In this document: in pieces, positions 622 through 10,089 of the stretch | Position numbering within the stretch: position 1 is the first letter of the stretch | Layout: the number at the start of each line of letters is the position of its first letter | Source of the DNA: Candidatus Methanomethylicia archaeon | GTDB lineage: Archaea > Thermoproteota > Methanomethylicia > CALHIW01 | Length of the DNA: 64,000 nt | Assembly: GCA_038845975.1 (NCBI GenBank) | Contig: JAWBQF010000004.1 | Span: forward strand, 64,001-128,000 | Direction: 5' to 3' | Position numbers and translations under genes: made by a program | The notes under the pieces: model-generated | What the model was told of the DNA's origin: nothing | What the model saw: only the letters and a program-made list of their open reading frames with translations | Database searches by the model: none

Positions 622-1188
622 ATGTTTGAATTACGTCTCCATGGTAGAGGAGGACAAGGTATTGTTACTGCTGCTGAACTTCTTGTTAAGGCCGCATCTA
701 TAGAAGGAAAGTGGGGTCAAAGCATTCCTATGTTTGGAGCTGAACGTAGAGGAGCTCCTGTTATTGCCTATGCTAGAGTATCTAATAGACCTATTAGAAT
801 TCATAGTCAAATTTATGAGCCTGATGCTGTTGCCGTATTCGACTCTAGAATTATTGAAATTGTTAATGTTACAAGCGGATTGAAAAATGGTGGAGTTATA
901 ATTCTTAATACAAGTAGGGGGGTTGAGGGGCTGAAGCTAAATGGTTATAAAGTTGTTACTGTTGATGCTACCAGAATCGCTGTTAATCTTAAACTTGTTA
1001 CTGCTGGTTTCCCTATTGTTAATACAGCTATGATTGGAGCTATAGTTAAAGCTACAGGCTTAGTAAAGCTTGAATCAGTAATTACAGCTATTAGAAATAC
1101 GTGGAGTGGAGGTTTTGCTAATGGAAACATTAAGGCTGTAGAAAAAGCATATGAGGAGACCGTAGGGGTTGATTATGGAGACCCTTGA
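622..1188 (+). CDS. porG: 2-oxoacid:ferredoxin oxidoreductase gamma subunit (operon 1)
   Basis: RLHGRGGQG, FGAERRGAPV, VNTAMIGA motifs; 188 aa. Confidence 0.92.
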   Translation: MFELRLHGRGGQGIVTAAELLVKAASIEGKWGQSIPMFGAERRGAPVIAYARVSNRPIRIHSQIYEPDAVAVFDSRIIEIVNVTSGLKNGGVIILNTSRGVEGLKLNGYKVVTVDATRIAVNLKLVTAGFPIVNTAMIGAIVKATGLVKLESVITAIRNTWSGGFANGNIKAVEKAYEETVGVDYGDP

Positions 1189-1435
1189 AACACCATTATC
1201 AAAGCCTTCAGAAGGATCAGCTGGAATTACAGGCTACTGGAGAACATTCAAACCAGTAATTAATAAGTCTAAGTGTATAAAATGCTTACTATGCTGGATC
1301 TACTGTCCTGAGGGAACCATAATTAGAGTGGATGATGGTGTAGAGGTTAATTACATGTATTGTAAGGGATGTGGTATATGTGCAAATGAATGTCCAGCTA
1401 AAGCAATAGAGATGGTTTTAGAGGGAGAAATATGA
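1169..1435 (+). CDS. porD: 2-oxoacid:ferredoxin oxidoreductase delta subunit, 2x[4Fe-4S]
   Basis: TGYWRTFKPV, CIKCLLCWIYCP, YCKGCGICANECP. Confidence 0.92.
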   Translation: MIMETLETPLSKPSEGSAGITGYWRTFKPVINKSKCIKCLLCWIYCPEGTIIRVDDGVEVNYMYCKGCGICANECPAKAIEMVLEGEI

Positions 1436-2628
1436 GAGTTGTTTTAACAGGTAATCATGCTGCTGCTTACGCTGCATTACTATCAAGAGTTGAAGTTGTA
1501 GCGGCATATCCTATAACACCACAAACCCAAATTGTTGAGAAGCTAGCTGAGTTTATTGAGGGGGGAAGGCTTAAAGCTAAATATATAAGAGTTGAGTCTG
1601 AACATAGTGCGATGGCTGCCATAATTGGTGCTAGTGCTGCTGGTGCAAGAACTTTTACTGCTACAGCTTCACATGGACTTGTATATATGAATGAAATGGT
1701 TTTCTGGGCTGGAAATGCAAGACTACCTATAGTTATGGCTATAGTATGTAGAGCCTTAGCCCCGCCATGGAATATTTGGACTGAACATACAGATATACTT
1801 GCTCAAAGAGATACTGGATGGATTCAGTTTTTCTGTGAAGATAATCAGGAAGTTTTAGATACTGTTATTCAAGCCTTTAAAATAGCTGAAGATGATAGAG
1901 TTTTACTTCCAGTAATGGTTGGTCTTGATGCATTCATACTCTCACATACAGCTACTCCTGTAGATGTTCCAGAACAGGAGGATATTGATGGATTTCTACC
2001 TCCAAGAAAGCCTTTACCATTCATACTTGATGTTAATAATCCGTTAACCCATTCAAACATGGCATATCCTAATCAAACAATGGAGTTTAGATATAGACTT
2101 CAGAAAGCAATGGAGAGAGCTATGAGGGTTATAATGGAAGTAGATGAAGAATATGGAAGATTAACCGGTAGAAAATATGGTGGATTACTAGACTGTTATA
2201 GATGTGAAGATGCTGATTTAGGGGTTATAGTTATGGGATCTTCTGCAGGTGATGCTAAGGAGGCTATAGATAAACTACGTGATGAAGGATATAAGCCTGG
2301 AGTCATTAGGATTAGAGTTTTCAGACCATTTCCAAGGGAAGAACTTAGGGAAATATGTAGAAGATTTAAGGCTATAGCTGTTATTGATAGGGATCTATCC
2401 CCAGGTTTAGGTGGAATACTCTATACTGAAACACTTACAAGTCTATATGATTTAAAGAATAGACCAATAGTTCAAAACTATATAGCTGGATTAGGTGGAA
2501 GAGATATTAGTGTAAATGATTTTAAATTAATTGTTAGGGAATTATATAGAAATATTGAGGAGGGAGTTGAAATAACTCCTATAAGATGGATTGGAATAGA
2601 GGGAGTTAACTATGAGTTTAAAAATTAA
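1432..2628 (+). CDS. porA: 2-oxoacid:ferredoxin oxidoreductase alpha subunit
   Basis: AYPITPQT, VESEHSA, TATASHGL, GLGGRD motifs. Confidence 0.93.
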   Translation: MRVVLTGNHAAAYAALLSRVEVVAAYPITPQTQIVEKLAEFIEGGRLKAKYIRVESEHSAMAAIIGASAAGARTFTATASHGLVYMNEMVFWAGNARLPIVMAIVCRALAPPWNIWTEHTDILAQRDTGWIQFFCEDNQEVLDTVIQAFKIAEDDRVLLPVMVGLDAFILSHTATPVDVPEQEDIDGFLPPRKPLPFILDVNNPLTHSNMAYPNQTMEFRYRLQKAMERAMRVIMEVDEEYGRLTGRKYGGLLDCYRCEDADLGVIVMGSSAGDAKEAIDKLRDEGYKPGVIRIRVFRPFPREELREICRRFKAIAVIDRDLSPGLGGILYTETLTSLYDLKNRPIVQNYIAGLGGRDISVNDFKLIVRELYRNIEEGVEITPIRWIGIEGVNYEFKN

Positions 2629-3520
2629 AGATCTTCCTATTGAGGATTATTGGCTACCTGGCAACCCATCATGTCCCGGATGCCCAGCCTCACTTGGATT
2701 AAGATTACTTATGAAAGCCCTTGGACCTAAAACAATAACCATTATACCTGCATGCTGTTCAACAATAATTCAGGGAACATATCCTAAAACCTCAGCAAAC
2801 TTTCCAATACTTAACATAGCGTTTGCAGCTTCAGCAGCTGCTGCTTCAGGCATTGTTGAAGCATTAGAGCTTAAAGGTAAAAATAACGTTAATGTTGTTG
2901 TCTGGGCAGGTGATGGTGGAACTGTAGATATAGGACTGCAAGCGCTTAGTGGTGCTGCAGAGAGAAATGAAAATATTATTTACATATGTTATGATAATGA
3001 AGCGTATATGAATACGGGAATACAGCGTTCAGGCGCAACTCCCTACGGTGCATGGACAACAACAACCATTACAGGTAAAAAGGAACACAAGAAGAATTTA
3101 CCGCTAATAATGATTGCTCATGGAATACCATATGTAGCAACAGCATCAGTATCCTATCCTATAGACTTTATAACTAAATTGAGAAAGGCATCTAAAATTT
3201 ATGGAATGAAGTATATACACTTACATTCTCCATGTCCAACAGGGTGGAGGTTCCCATCAGACAAAACAATAGAAATCGGTAGATTAGCTGTTCTTACAGG
3301 TACATGGATATTATATGAAGTTGAAAATGGAACATTTAAACTAAATCCTCCAAGTAATATCTTAATAGATAAGAGTAAAAGAAAGCCGATAAGAAACTAC
3401 ATAAAGATTCAGGGAAGATTCTCTCATTTAAATGATGAGGATATAGATGAGCTGCAAAAATATGTAGATAGACAGTGGGAAACCTGCTTAAAGCTTCTAT
3501 CTATAGGTAAAGTCTATTAG
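2612..3520 (+). CDS. porB: 2-oxoacid:ferredoxin oxidoreductase beta subunit (TPP-binding)
   Basis: CPGCP, GDGG...DNEAYMNTGIQRS, SPCPTGW; substrate specificity cannot be read from sequence. Confidence 0.93.
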   Translation: MSLKIKDLPIEDYWLPGNPSCPGCPASLGLRLLMKALGPKTITIIPACCSTIIQGTYPKTSANFPILNIAFAASAAAASGIVEALELKGKNNVNVVVWAGDGGTVDIGLQALSGAAERNENIIYICYDNEAYMNTGIQRSGATPYGAWTTTTITGKKEHKKNLPLIMIAHGIPYVATASVSYPIDFITKLRKASKIYGMKYIHLHSPCPTGWRFPSDKTIEIGRLAVLTGTWILYEVENGTFKLNPPSNILIDKSKRKPIRNYIKIQGRFSHLNDEDIDELQKYVDRQWETCLKLLSIGKVY

Positions 3521-5528: not shown

Positions 5529-6132
5529 CCATTATAAAATATACTTAAATAATAAACCTTCTTTATGATAGAATCTCAAGACGCTTGACTACTTAGAGTA
5601 AATTAAAGAAGACGTTAAACCATATAATTCCACCTATTTAAAATCTAGTTAGAATTTAAGAAGTCAAAGTATCACATGCTATTTTATTGCATTCTTCCAT
5701 TCAATTTGCCCTATTATATAGGGTTGTTTACTGTATTGAGCTAAGAATACTTAGTTTTCTATTAAAGATAAATATACTGATTCTACTATGTTTCTCTTAC
5801 TAAAAGATGTTTCTGACATGGTTTAAATTTAGTACTTACATGCTACTCTATAATTGTCCTGCCAACCTAGATTTCATATTTATGTGCTGATAAGTAATGA
5901 ATGTAAAGTATGTAAGCTTAATAATATTTAAAGTAGATGTATACAGATAAGTCAAAATAATTTATTAGTTTTTAAAAGTATTGAGTAACATAATAAATGT
6001 ATAATTTAGATGCTGGAATTATAGGAATGTGTTAGAAAGATGAAAATAATAAAACTTCTAAAGATCACAAAGCCCTCTAGTTTTAACGATAGGCTTATAT
6101 ACTATTACTAAAAATACTTTTTGGTGTTCTAT

Positions 6133-6732
6133 ATGTCTTGGAATGAGGATTTTCCATCATGGTGGCGTAGAAGAAGAAAAAGCATACTTCCATCTTTTGA
6201 GGATATATTTGCAGAGTTTGATAGAATATTTGAGGAAATGTTACGTGGAATAGGTGAGGAAATTCCTAGAGGTTTAATTAGAGAAAGAAGACTTCCAGAT
6301 GGTAGGATAGTCCGTGAAACTGGACCAATAGTATGGGGATATTCAGTAACTATAGGCCCTGATGGAAAGCCACAAATAAGAGAATTCGGAAATGTTAAGC
6401 CTAGAATTAAGGAAACACCGTTCGGCGCTAAACCATCAGTAGAGGTTTTGGAAGAAAGAGAGCCGCTAGTTGATGTCATTGAGACAGAAGACCAAGTTAA
6501 GATTATAGCAGAGCTACCAGGTGTAGAGAAAGATGATATAAAGCTTAATGCAACAGAGAAAACACTTACAATATCTGTTGATACTGAGAGAAGAAGATAC
6601 TATAAGGAGCTTCAACTACCAGTAGAAGTTGATCCTGAAAGTGCTAAGGCATCATATAAAAATGGAGTATTAGAAGTGCAATTAGTAAAGAAAATTAAGA
6701 GTAAACCAGGAAAACATATTAAAATAGAGTAA
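6133..6732 (+). CDS. hsp20: Archaeal small heat-shock protein Hsp20
   Basis: GPIVWGYSVTIGPDGKP.IREFGN, EREPLVDV, AELPGV, ASYKNGVLEV; ATG at 6133 follows GGTG. Confidence 0.92.
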   Translation: MSWNEDFPSWWRRRRKSILPSFEDIFAEFDRIFEEMLRGIGEEIPRGLIRERRLPDGRIVRETGPIVWGYSVTIGPDGKPQIREFGNVKPRIKETPFGAKPSVEVLEEREPLVDVIETEDQVKIIAELPGVEKDDIKLNATEKTLTISVDTERRRYYKELQLPVEVDPESAKASYKNGVLEVQLVKKIKSKPGKHIKIE

Positions 6733-7105
6733 CATCTAAACTAATCTTAGTGACCATCTTTTTCATCCTAACTATTACTAGGATAGAGTCTATCTCGATA
6801 TTGTATTCATCAACTATACTTCCTAATCAATATGAATTACAGATGATAGCTCACAGAATCTATGAATCCTACATAGAGTTTCATAGCTTAATAGGTAAAA
6901 TCCTACTCATACATCTTAAGCTACATCCAAGAATAAGTTAATAAACTGTAATCAAATATAAATGATGTCCTCATCCCCTGAAGAAACTATAATTGCTAAC
7001 CATACTCAATATCAGAATGGGAATATACCCAAATAAAACTTCCAAAGTTGATGGGGCAATTATTTAAAATGGAAACATTTAAGTGTATGTAATAAATTAG
7101 GGCAT

Positions 7106-7112
7106 GGTGAGG
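7106..7112 (+). promoter_or_regulatory. Shine-Dalgarno-like GGTGAGG upstream of the true start of the interrupted gamma-subunit gene
   Basis: GGTGAGG directly before ATG 7115; AT-rich TTTAAG about 35 nt upstream. Confidence 0.55.
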
Positions 7113-7114
7113 CT

Positions 7115-7720
7115 ATGAAGTTTATTGAAATTAGATGGCATGGTAGAGGTGGTATGGGAATAGTTACTGTTGCAAGAATACTTGCAGAAGCAGCGCTTCT
7201 GGAGGGAAGATATTCACAGGCATTTCCTCATTTCGGCCCAGAATGTAGTATCTAGGCCTATAGGCCTAGATACTACCTGGAGCGTTCAGGAGCTCCTGTA
7301 GATGGATTTACTAGAATTGCAGATTTTCCTATTGAAATTCATAGTCAAATTTATAATCCTGATGTTGTTGTAGTAGTAGATCCAACATTGATTGGAGTTA
7401 TTGATGTTACACATGGACTTAAAAAGGATGGGAAATTAGTAATTAACTTTAGAGGGAAACCAATCGATATTAGGAATAAACTTAATATTGATAAAAGTAT
7501 AAAGGTTTTTGTTGTTGATGCTAAAAGAATAGCTTTAGATATTTTAGGTAGACCTATCTATAATACACCTATGCTTGGTGCTACTATTAAAGCTATTGAA
7601 GGACTTGTTTCATTAAAATCAGTAGTTGAAGCTACTATGAGTAGGTTTAAGGGAGAGTTAGGATTAAAAAACGTTGAAGCTATTAAAAGAGCTTATGAAG
7701 AGGTGATTTCCGATGAGTAA
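7115..7720 (+). CDS. porG: 2-oxoacid:ferredoxin oxidoreductase gamma subunit (operon 2), split gene join(7115..7243,7283..7720), 188 aa after splicing
   Basis: Exon 1 [18 protein letters not shown]...QAFPHFGPE; exon 2 [12 protein letters not shown]...IHSQIYNPD...IYNTPMLGA. The ORF track shows only the C-terminal part (7388-7720) because of the in-frame TAG at 7253. Confidence 0.9.
7244..7282 (+). other. Putative 39-nt bulge-helix-bulge (BHB) intron in a protein-coding gene
   Basis: Central helix CCAG(7238-41)/CUGG(7277-80); 3-nt bulges AAU(7242-44) and AGC(7281-83); inner stem from the perfect palindrome 7245-7276; outer pairing GGC/GUU. Removal restores FGPERSGAPV. Confidence 0.85.
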
Positions 7721-7991
7721 AACTGGATGGCGTAGCTTACCAGTTGCAGGTATTATTCCTAAAGCTGGCTCCAGTTTAGAATATAAGACAGGTACATGGA
7801 GAGCTTTTAAACCAGTAGTTGATGAGAGTAAATGTACGTTCTGCTTATTATGCTGGATCTATTGTCCTGATGGAGCTGTTAAACGTTTTGATAGTAATAG
7901 AAAGATTTCTATTGATTACGATTACTGTAAAGGATGTGGTATATGTGCTTCAGAATGCCCTGTTAAGGCTATAAGTATGGTGGAGGAGTGA
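7713..7991 (+). CDS. porD: 2-oxoacid:ferredoxin oxidoreductase delta subunit (operon 2)
   Basis: YKTGTWRAFKPV, CTFCLLCWIYCPD, YCKGCGICASECP. Confidence 0.92.
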   Translation: MSKTGWRSLPVAGIIPKAGSSLEYKTGTWRAFKPVVDESKCTFCLLCWIYCPDGAVKRFDSNRKISIDYDYCKGCGICASECPVKAISMVEE

Positions 7992-9169
7992 GTACTATGA
8001 GGATTATTGGTTTAACAGGTGATGAGGCTGTAGCTTATGCTGTTAAGCAGTGTGACGTTGATGTTATTGCTGCATATCCCATTACACCACAGACAATCAT
8101 TGTTGAGAGAATTAGTGATTTTGTTGCTAACGGTGAAATAGATGCTGAATATGTATGTGTTGAATCAGAACATTCAGCTCTCTCCGCATGTATTGGTGCA
8201 AGTGTAATGGGTGCTAGAGTATTTACTGCTACAGCTAGTCAGGGTCTAGCTTTAATGCATGAAATACTCTATATAGCTTCCTCTCTTAGGCTACCTATTG
8301 TTATGGCTGTTGTAAATAGAGCCTTATCTGCACCTATTAATATTCATGGAGACCATTCTGATATGATGGGGTCTAGAGATTGTGGATGGATTCAAATTTA
8401 TACTGAAAACGCTCAGGAAGCATATGACACTACAATTCAAGCATTTAAAATTGCTGAAGACCCCAATGCATCTCTACCTGTAACTGTTAATCTTGACGGT
8501 TTTATAATTTCACATTCAATGGAGAGAGTTGAAATCCTAAATGATGAAGATGTTAAAAGATTTCTCCCACCTAGAAAACCTTTATATAGACTTGATGTAG
8601 AAAACCCAATAACTATTGGGTCACTATGCTTTACCGATTACTACTTCGAGTTTAAAAGACAGCAAGCCGAAGCCATAGAGGAATCATACAAGACAATAAT
8701 GAGTGTTATGAATGAATATAGTAAAGCATCAGGTAGAAGCTATAAGTTTATAGATACATATGGTATTGAAGATGCTGAGGTACTGATTGTCTGCATGGGA
8801 AGTACATGTGGAACTGCTAGATTTACAGCTAAAAGACTAAGAGAAAGAGGAGAGAAAGTAGGAATTGTTAAGGTATCACTATATAGACCGTTTCCAAGTA
8901 AAGAAATAATTGAAGCTATCAAAAATGCTGAAGCCCTGGTTGTTATGGATAGAGCTGTAAGCTTTGGGGCTCCCTCAGGACCGCTATGCTCAGACATTAA
9001 AAATACACTATATGATGCTGGATTAAGAATAAAGATTTTAAATATAATCTATGGTCTTGGAGGAAGAGATGTCTCACAAAGTGATGTAGAGCAAGCGTTT
9101 AAGCTAGGCTTTAAATTAAAATCAGGAGATGTAAAAGATAAAGTCTTATGGCTAGGGGTGAGAGAATAA
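7988..9169 (+). CDS. porA: Pyruvate/2-oxoacid:ferredoxin oxidoreductase alpha subunit (operon 2)
   Basis: AYPITPQT, VESEHSA, TATASQGL, NRALSAPINIHGDH, YGLGGRD. Confidence 0.93.
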   Translation: MSTMRIIGLTGDEAVAYAVKQCDVDVIAAYPITPQTIIVERISDFVANGEIDAEYVCVESEHSALSACIGASVMGARVFTATASQGLALMHEILYIASSLRLPIVMAVVNRALSAPINIHGDHSDMMGSRDCGWIQIYTENAQEAYDTTIQAFKIAEDPNASLPVTVNLDGFIISHSMERVEILNDEDVKRFLPPRKPLYRLDVENPITIGSLCFTDYYFEFKRQQAEAIEESYKTIMSVMNEYSKASGRSYKFIDTYGIEDAEVLIVCMGSTCGTARFTAKRLRERGEKVGIVKVSLYRPFPSKEIIEAIKNAEALVVMDRAVSFGAPSGPLCSDIKNTLYDAGLRIKILNIIYGLGGRDVSQSDVEQAFKLGFKLKSGDVKDKVLWLGVRE

Positions 9170-10089
9170 TGGTTACCCTTAGGGAATTACCAATTGAGGA
9201 CTATATCGTATCTGGACATAGAATGTGTGCTGGATGCGGATCAGCTATTGCTGCAAGAATGGCTTTAAAAGCTGCAGGACCAAATACAATTGTTGTAAAT
9301 GCTACTGGATGCCTTGAAGTAGCAACAACAATTTATCCATATACTTCTTGGAGGATTCCATGGATACATGTAGCCTTTGAAAATGCAGCTGCTGTTGCAA
9401 GCGGTATTGAAGCAGCCATAAGAGTATTAACTAGGAAAAACTTGATGAAACAGAAGCCCAACATCATAGCTTTTGGAGGAGATGGAGGAACCTTTGATAT
9501 AGGAATTCAAGCATTATCTGGAGCATTAGAGAGAGGACATAGATTCCTATACATATGCTATGATAATGAAGCCTATATGAATACTGGAATACAACGTAGT
9601 GGAGCAACTCCACTTGGTGCTGCTACAACTACAAGTCCCTCAGGCAGAGTTATACCTGGTAAGAAAGAGTGGAAAAAGGACTTAATAGGTATCGCTGTTG
9701 CACATAATATTCCATATGCAGCTACAGCATGCATATCATATTGGAGTGACTATATTAATAAGGTTAAAAAGGCCTTAAGCTTTAATGGACCTACAGTTAT
9801 CCATGTTCTTTCACCATGCCAGCTTGGATGGCGTTTTGATCCTAGTGAAACAATAAAATTAGGTAGGTTAGCAGTACAAACCAGGATATTCCCAATATAT
9901 GAGGTTGAATATGGTAAATATAAATTAAATATTAATGTAACAAAGCCTTTACCAGTTATAGAGTATATAAGGATACAGGGTAGATTTAGGCATTTACTTG
10001 AACCACAAAACAGCCATATTATTGAAGACATACAGAAAAACATTAATTTACAGTGGAATCGTTTACTTAAACTTTGCAGTATAGAGTAA
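9169..10089 (+). CDS. porB: Pyruvate/2-oxoacid:ferredoxin oxidoreductase beta subunit (operon 2)
   Basis: GHRMCAGCG, ATGCLEV, FENAAAVASG, GDGG...DNEAYMNTGIQRS; ATG overlaps the porA stop (TAATG). Confidence 0.93.
   Translation: MVTLRELPIEDYIVSGHRMCAGCGSAIAARMALKAAGPNTIVVNATGCLEVATTIYPYTSWRIPWIHVAFENAAAVASGIEAAIRVLTRKNLMKQKPNIIAFGGDGGTFDIGIQALSGALERGHRFLYICYDNEAYMNTGIQRSGATPLGAATTTSPSGRVIPGKKEWKKDLIGIAVAHNIPYAATACISYWSDYINKVKKALSFNGPTVIHVLSPCQLGWRFDPSETIKLGRLAVQTRIFPIYEVEYGKYKLNINVTKPLPVIEYIRIQGRFRHLLEPQNSHIIEDIQKNINLQWNRLLKLCSIE

Follow-up and report, generated by a model that had tools for sequence, protein, structure and literature searches.

A putative intron of the tRNA type (bulge-helix-bulge) in the gene for the gamma subunit of a pyruvate/2-oxoisovalerate-family oxidoreductase of a Methanomethylicia archaeon

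How can an oxidoreductase subunit be made from a gene whose reading frame is closed by a stop codon after only 46 residues? This question is raised by a gene at 7115-7720 of the window, a stretch of 64,000 nucleotides from the genome of a Candidatus Methanomethylicia archaeon (2.77 Mb, 76 contigs, 33.7% G+C). According to a run search, the DNA of the window is present in hot-spring metagenomes of ten studies. The frame from ATG 7115 reads to ...FPHFGPE, continues with CSI, and ends at TAG 7253-7255. In the ORF listing, the gene is represented by a 46-aa ORF at 7115-7255, and the next in-frame start is TTG 7388. With the TAG read as X, the frame runs open to the stop at 7718-7720, the insert being a multiple of three with a single stop. 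The arrangement originally predicted, namely 39 extra nucleotides that carry the TAG and are followed by a resumption at RSGAPV, is thus borne out by both the sequence and the ORF listing. Based on sequence comparison, we propose that the insert 7244-7282 is very probably a tRNA-type pre-mRNA intron of the bulge-helix-bulge (BHB) kind, located in the gamma subunit of a four-subunit oxoacid:ferredoxin oxidoreductase (OFOR) of the pyruvate/2-oxoisovalerate family.

Taking out 7244-7282 in silico results in a coding sequence of 567 nt, which encodes 188 aa without internal stops and has, as the original prediction had stated, precisely the length of the intron-less paralogue at 622-1188. The two proteins share 45% identity (E 9e-52) and align without a gap at the junction, with FGPERSGAPV facing FGAERRGAPV. 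In an alignment with 14 intron-less homologues, comprising the window's paralogue and 13 genes of other genomes in the class, the motif FG(P/A)ER(R/M)GAP is cleanly interrupted by the 13 additional codons, which lie exactly between FGP(E) and (E)R, while FGPERRGAP is uninterrupted in 14 of 14 homologues. The read-through gamma protein matches PF01558 with 112.5 bits (cut-off 27.4) over profile positions 1-173 of 173 and TIGR02175 (PorC_KorC) with 203.9 bits (cut-off 81.1). Both scores lie above the cut-offs and confirm the proposed porG as a gamma subunit. No equivalog-level model reaches its cut-off for this subunit, so that pyruvate is a candidate substrate. The OFOR gamma subunit is described as domain III, which binds CoA (PMC13768988). 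The features of the locus are compiled in Table 1.

Table 1. Coordinates of the gamma gene, its predicted intron and BHB elements, the downstream operon genes, and one tRNA gene elsewhere in the genome (positions refer to the window unless stated).
Feature	Position	Strand	Remarks
Exon 1, OFOR gamma-subunit gene (porC/porG-like)	7115-7243	+	43 codons, ends ...FGPE
Outer helix, 5' strand GGC	7235-7237	+	weak with GUU 7284-7286: G-U, G-U, C-G
Central 4-bp helix, 5' strand CCAG (exon 1)	7238-7241	+	pairs with 7277-7280; in MFE fold; 5/5 sequences, invariant
5' bulge AAU	7242-7244	+	unpaired in MFE fold; predicted cut A7243|U7244
BHB-type intron, predicted	7244-7282	+	39 nt, phase 0, in-frame TAG 7253-7255
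Inner helix, perfect 14-bp stem with UAUA loop	7245-7276	+	7245-7258 with 7263-7276, loop 7259-7262
Central 4-bp helix, 3' strand CUGG (intron 3' end)	7277-7280	+	in MFE fold; paired in 5/5
3' bulge AGC as drawn	7281-7283	+	predicted cut G7282|C7283; MFE fold bulges A7281 alone
Exon 2, gamma gene	7283-7720	+	145 codons and stop, starts RSGAPV
Delta subunit gene	7713-7991	+	PorD_Arch 121.2 bits, cut-off 120
Alpha subunit gene	7988-9169	+	PorA_Arch 511.6 bits, below cut-off 550
Beta subunit gene	9148-10089	+	PorB NF008819 411.7 bits, cut-off 405
tRNA gene with intron, called tRNA-Trp	G000 contig 30, 25301-25388	+	ARAGORN

The gamma gene is the first gene of a four-gene OFOR operon of the pyruvate/2-oxoisovalerate family, which spans 7115-10089. 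The three genes that follow (delta, alpha, and beta) are full-length, with 90-96% identity in four other distinct lineages and 99-100% identity in metagenome contig L034. The neighbours of the gamma gene are an acyl-CoA ligase, Hsp20, PorD/A/B, and MobA. We rejected an origin of the intron from a mobile cassette, as neither a homing-endonuclease gene nor any other mobile gene is found among these neighbours. The 63-aa ORF at 6750-6941 has no Pfam match. A scan for promoters and terminators relied on a bacterial consensus and is uninformative here; the stem in the gamma gene is without a terminator-like T-run.

In the transcript, CCAG of exon 1 would pair with CUGG of the intron, flanked by the bulges AAU and AGC, while a 14-bp stem would close the intron. 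For the 76-nt segment, the minimum-energy (MFE) fold is calculated at -36.4 kcal/mol (z -5.9), and none of 200 shuffles is as stable. Of the BHB drawing in the original prediction, this fold contains the CCAG/CUGG helix, the AAU bulge, the 14-bp stem, and the UAUA loop. In contrast, the AGC bulge and the outer helix are missing from it, and the 3' side consists of a 1-nt bulge (A7281) and two G-C pairs instead of the AGC bulge and GGC:GUU. The strict structure reaches -27.7 kcal/mol compared to -36.4 kcal/mol for the MFE fold of the segment, and the same drawing without the outer helix reaches -29.3 kcal/mol, a penalty of 1.6 kcal/mol (37 °C) for adding this helix. Nevertheless, the second 3-nt bulge and the outer GGC:GUU helix can be drawn and are invariant. 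For archaeal tRNA introns, hBHBh' and relaxed HBh' motif classes have been distinguished (Marck and Grosjean 2003). As judged from the modelled folds, the motif in the gamma gene combines a well-formed bulge-helix on the 5' side with a formable but weak second bulge on the 3' side, which would place it nearer to the relaxed class than to the strict hBHBh' class. Thus, the motif is of the BHB type, while the term "canonical" originally chosen for it is slightly overstated, given an outer helix of G-U, G-U, and C-G that lies outside the MFE fold. The 32-nt perfect palindrome formed by stem and loop (7245-7276) is single-copy in the genome.

In BHB motifs, cuts are predicted between the second and third bulge nucleotides (PMC2738675). 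Applied to the gamma gene, the rule leads to the cuts A7243|U7244 and G7282|C7283 and to a GAA|CGU junction in phase 0, as the original prediction had it, and this junction restores the conserved FGPER(R/S)GAP exactly. A cut after the first instead of the second bulge nucleotide encodes the same protein (register read by hand from the bases), and therefore the protein does not fix the exact cut sites. We infer that the splicing endonuclease EndA cuts between the second and third bulge nucleotides on both sides and that RtcB ligates GAA to CGU. The products would be a protein of 188 aa whose FGPERSGAP loop is intact and, probably, the excised intron as a circle of 39 nt. On an unspliced transcript, translation would end at TAG 7253 after 46 residues.

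The genome encodes the enzymes for this pathway. Two genes of the EndA family (PF01974) score above the cut-off. The product of one (183 aa, G000 contig 1) matches chain 3p1z_B of the A. pernix EndA with an E-value of 4.9e-51, without gaps through the N-terminal region, while the second (180 aa) is divergent, with best matches to 5x89, 1a79, and weakly 3p1z_A. EndA of the (alpha-beta)2 type, like the epsilon2 type, is described to cleave non-canonical introns (PMC5829648). The two paralogues probably correspond to the (alpha-beta)2 type, with putative subunit roles, and the enzyme acting on the gamma transcript would probably be composed of two different subunits and belong to a type that accepts relaxed motifs. 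RtcB is represented by one PF01139 gene above the cut-off (E 6.1e-175), located on contig 28. Moreover, of the tRNA genes detected by ARAGORN, only 26 in number, 15 are called with introns. Some of these calls are clearly mis-parsed, for instance a 179-nt "intron"; many tRNA genes of this genome probably carry introns, non-canonical or more than one per gene, that ARAGORN cannot resolve. The divergent EndA gene (G000 contig 30, 24213-24473, plus strand) is followed, about 1 kb downstream, by a tRNA gene called with an intron (Table 1).

A 39-nt insert is found at the identical site in G001/L023, a MAG of the same genus with 92% nucleotide identity to the window, in the near-identical metagenome contig L034, and in the metagenome contigs L035, L036, and L037, which show 84-86% amino acid identity to the window in exon 2. 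The window, G001/L023, L035, L036, and L037 constitute five distinct sequences, and the TAG is retained in all five. Across these, standard pairing is seen in 99.0% of 105 pair cells, compared to 21-49% for registers slid by one to three columns. In the inner stem, 98.6% of cells are paired, and the one unpaired cell overall occurs in L035. Changes on both sides affect 4 of 21 pairs, all within the 14-pair inner stem, a count reached by 8 of 500 shuffles. These compensatory changes convert C-G to U-A at stem pair 8 and replace three apical pairs (G-C/C-G/C-G) by U-A or A-U combinations. As for the covariation score, 3 of 500 shuffles attain it; in this small sample of five related sequences, such shuffle counts overstate the support. 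The bulges, the central helix, and the outer helix are invariant in the five sequences and hence uninformative on covariation, which therefore supports the inner stem alone. Part of the invariance of the cleavage core is explained by coding constraint. The comparison of orthologues suggested in the original prediction thus reveals an insert that is kept in five lineages, with compensatory changes in the stem and an invariant cleavage core.

Nei-Gojobori estimates (own script, five lineages, dS up to 0.62) result in dN/dS values of 0.05-0.34 for exon 1 and 0.05-0.22 for exon 2. By this comparison, both exons are under purifying selection. The leading 35 codons of exon 2 include 13 columns with synonymous variation alone and four with amino acid change. 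Read as codons, the intron has two columns with synonymous variation alone and four with amino acid change; judged by these columns, the variation of the insert is non-codon-like in pattern. No in-frame ATG, GTG, or TTG occurs among the leading 35 codons of exon 2 in either the window or L023. L035, L036, and L037 have an in-frame start in exon 2 at codon 15 (ATG or GTG; TTT in the window). Exon 2 begins with 14-35 codons that are conserved as protein and lack a start of their own, for which the best explanation is that translation runs on from exon 1. The gamma gene of L035, L036, and L037 itself starts with TTG (position 2833) instead of ATG.

An insert of this kind could be explained without splicing, and it might even be absent from real DNA, as a palindromic chimera of the assembly. 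The Logan contigs of two runs do break within the 32-nt palindrome (ends at 7274, starts at 7247), because de Bruijn assemblies break at perfect palindromes. Such a chimera is practically inconceivable, as contigs of run X1 (6800-7274 and 7247-8200) and of the independent run X12 (7153-7274, 7245-7276, and 7247-7403) match the window with 0 differences and bridge each intron border by 31-36 intron letters. Additionally, the insert occurs with its own substitutions in the MAG of a second species and in four metagenome contigs of other records. No DNA joint of 7243 to 7283, as expected for a form without the insert, was seen in any run examined; raw-read run X19 yielded only distant relatives, with 0 reads at 95% identity or above. 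The mapping across the insert called for originally thus supports its reality. Given a real insert, read-through or recoding of the TAG would leave the 13 extra residues in the protein, in agreement with an insert that is a multiple of three and has one stop. We regard this as extremely improbable. TAG terminates 376 of 1265 open frames of at least 250 codons and is therefore an ordinary stop in this genome, not a reassigned codon, and no tRNA with a CUA anticodon is among the 26 ARAGORN calls, which are an incomplete set. Further, the insert varies by paired, non-synonymous changes, and its retention would split the motif that all 14 intron-less homologues keep intact. Translational bypass, of which phage T4 gene 60 is an example, would produce the same protein as splicing by take-off of the ribosome at GAA 7241-7243 and landing at GAG 7280-7282, and a stable hairpin with an internal stop between two Glu codons is indeed present. 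Yet the take-off and landing codons differ, and the stop lies four codons past the take-off site rather than adjacent to it. The 3-4-3 geometry and the invariant core, which are specific for EndA substrates, would have to be a coincidence. To our knowledge, translational bypassing has not been reported in archaea, and we consider it very improbable here.

In a further alternative, the palindromic insertion might have killed this gamma copy, with other paralogues serving its function. The in-frame TAG reduces the ORF to 46 aa, and the genome harbours eight genes with a POR-gamma domain, of which this one alone is interrupted, and therefore this copy need not be essential. Moreover, the sole RNA run found (X17; 0.11 of words) has a depth of zero over 7176-7316, so that neither spliced nor unspliced transcripts are seen in it; elsewhere on the operon, it contributes two near-identical low-depth pieces, 7748-7805 and 8052-8200. 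However, decay should bring frameshifts and amino acid changes, whereas the low dN/dS of both exons is maintained in five lineages at a dS of up to 0.62. The length, site, and pairing of the insert are kept via compensatory changes, and the rest of the operon downstream (delta, alpha, beta) has likewise stayed intact, with 90-96% conservation. A dead gene is hence quite improbable. Alternatively, EndA might cleave without re-joining, or with conditional re-joining. In that case, the element would be a cleavage switch by which operon expression is reduced or gated, or each of the two parts would give a polypeptide of its own. Precedents are the cleavage of mRNAs by yeast TSEN, which is reported to lead to decay instead of splicing (PMC10485636), and the 5'-UTR intron of Haloferax HVO_1309, whose removal seems important for efficient expression (PMC7714728); the position of the intron within the first gene of an operon would also suit a switch. 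In contrast, the initial codons of exon 2 are conserved as protein although they lack their own start codon, ligation predicts a junction like the one here, which is in phase 0 and restores a conserved motif exactly, and the RtcB gene is present. Cleavage without ligation, or with conditional ligation, therefore appears improbable, although it may add a layer of regulation to splicing.

A BHB pre-mRNA intron in the gamma gene thus agrees with the junction, the conservation, the selection on the exons, the genes for EndA and RtcB, and the DNA, and this main claim of the original prediction is supported, with splicing itself predicted from these lines. A more far-reaching reading takes the intron as a post-transcriptional gate, a regulated element rather than a neutral passenger, by which the first OFOR gene becomes translatable only after EndA and RtcB have acted. 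We consider such a gate unlikely. If it did exist, the output of a central-carbon enzyme would depend on how active EndA and RtcB are, with, for example, temperature (via the very stable 14-bp stem) or RNA-repair status as an input, and the excised 39-nt circle might persist as a small RNA.

The intron is narrowly distributed. A homologue of the gamma protein is found in 60 of 62 genomes of the class at E ≤ 1e-20. Among the matches listed, only the genome studied here (G000) and G001 have an internal stop ("1 TAG"), while the next best, with 45-54% identity, are uninterrupted. Likewise, when 401 genomes of the phylum were searched with a degenerate intron pattern (up to three mismatches), these same two had one match each and the other 399 had none. 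Within the genome, there are no further copies of the intron beyond chance matches of 11-15 nt, and Rfam contains no family that matches it. The cbf5 gene of this genome (G000 contig 28, 34018-34962, minus strand) is uninterrupted, with a frame of 330 aa and a TIGR00425 score of 458 bits. A genome-wide scan for ORF-joining BHB motifs applied strict geometry, to which relaxed motifs are invisible, so that the absence of further introns is not implied. It returned 549 ORF-joining candidates with the true 4-bp helix, compared to 1577 for 3-bp and 201 for 5-bp decoys. After filtering for a start-less exon 2, 65 candidates were left versus 226 (3-bp) and 29 (5-bp). These counts follow chance scaling; the porG site ranks first by helix length, and apart from it, no candidate stands out. 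From the sequences compared, the intron appears to have been gained once, in one lineage of genus or family rank within Methanomethylicia.

The closest known counterpart is the BHB intron of the cbf5 pre-mRNA, which is described for Desulfurococcales and Sulfolobales (Yokobori 2009, PMC2738675, citing Watanabe 2002 and Yoshinari 2006). Both are short introns inside a protein-coding frame with a BHB or relaxed BHB motif, whose cuts are predicted to fall between bulge nucleotides two and three, and in hosts with a hetero-oligomeric EndA, as far as the subunit assignment here holds. Both interrupt a highly conserved site, i.e., the codon of the catalytic Asp in cbf5 and the FGPERRGAP loop in the gamma gene, and both are patchy and lineage-restricted in distribution, implying gain and loss. 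In contrast to the RNA-modification enzyme encoded by cbf5, the gamma gene encodes a subunit of a central-metabolism oxidoreductase, and its lineage belongs to the class Methanomethylicia. The cbf5 intron lies between the first and second codon letters, whereas the gamma intron is in phase 0. Finally, splicing of cbf5 is backed by cDNA and in vitro data, while splicing of the gamma intron is predicted from DNA comparison.

Two further systems frame the case. The intron of Haloferax volcanii HVO_1309 (Schwarz 2020, PMC7714728; PMC10485636) is likewise presented as an archaeal mRNA substrate of EndA outside tRNA and rRNA. Unlike the gamma intron, it is located in an untranslated leader, so that no reading frame is interrupted, and its host is described as a euryarchaeon with a homodimeric enzyme. 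With archaeal tRNA introns, the gamma intron shares the identical 3-4-3 geometry and the enzymes, in a genome whose own tRNA genes are intron-rich. It differs in that its host RNA is an mRNA, in an unusually long inner stem of 14 perfect pairs, and in its lack of sequence similarity elsewhere in the genome beyond short chance matches.

The Haloferax report of 2020 gives cbf5 as the sole further BHB mRNA intron besides its own 5'-UTR case (PMC7714728), and a review of 2023 speaks of two or more archaeal genes and of others that "remain to be discovered" (PMC10485636). A search of open-access main text and preprints returned no BHB intron described for an oxidoreductase gene, nor one for Methanomethylicia, Culexarchaeia, or Verstraetearchaeota, and the word "intron" has 0 occurrences in the Culexarchaeia paper. 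The original prediction, which knew of no intron reported for an OFOR gene, is in line with this search. The intron of the gamma gene is thus supported as a further case of archaeal BHB pre-mRNA introns, which the open-access search returned in print for cbf5 and the Haloferax leader only. It would extend archaeal pre-mRNA splicing to a metabolic enzyme gene and to a new lineage, provide comparative support by combining covariation with selection on both exons, and represent a datable, lineage-restricted gain, with intron-less homologues of 45-54% identity in the class. In practice, gene callers will output a 46-aa stub and a truncated gene, and because of this, the OFOR looks incomplete in metabolic reconstructions of these hot-spring archaea. 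Additionally, the palindrome of the intron stem may act as an assembly break and fragment this operon in other assemblies.

The surroundings of the operon show two further features. Directly upstream lies the Hsp20 gene (window 6121-6732), and this position is conserved in all five lineages. A second four-subunit OFOR operon is located at 622-3520, in tandem and 3.6 kb apart, and is closer to the 2-oxoisovalerate type. The best match of its beta subunit is the 2-oxoisovalerate-type model NF008818 (481.7 bits), while the beta subunit of the intron-containing operon is PorB-like.
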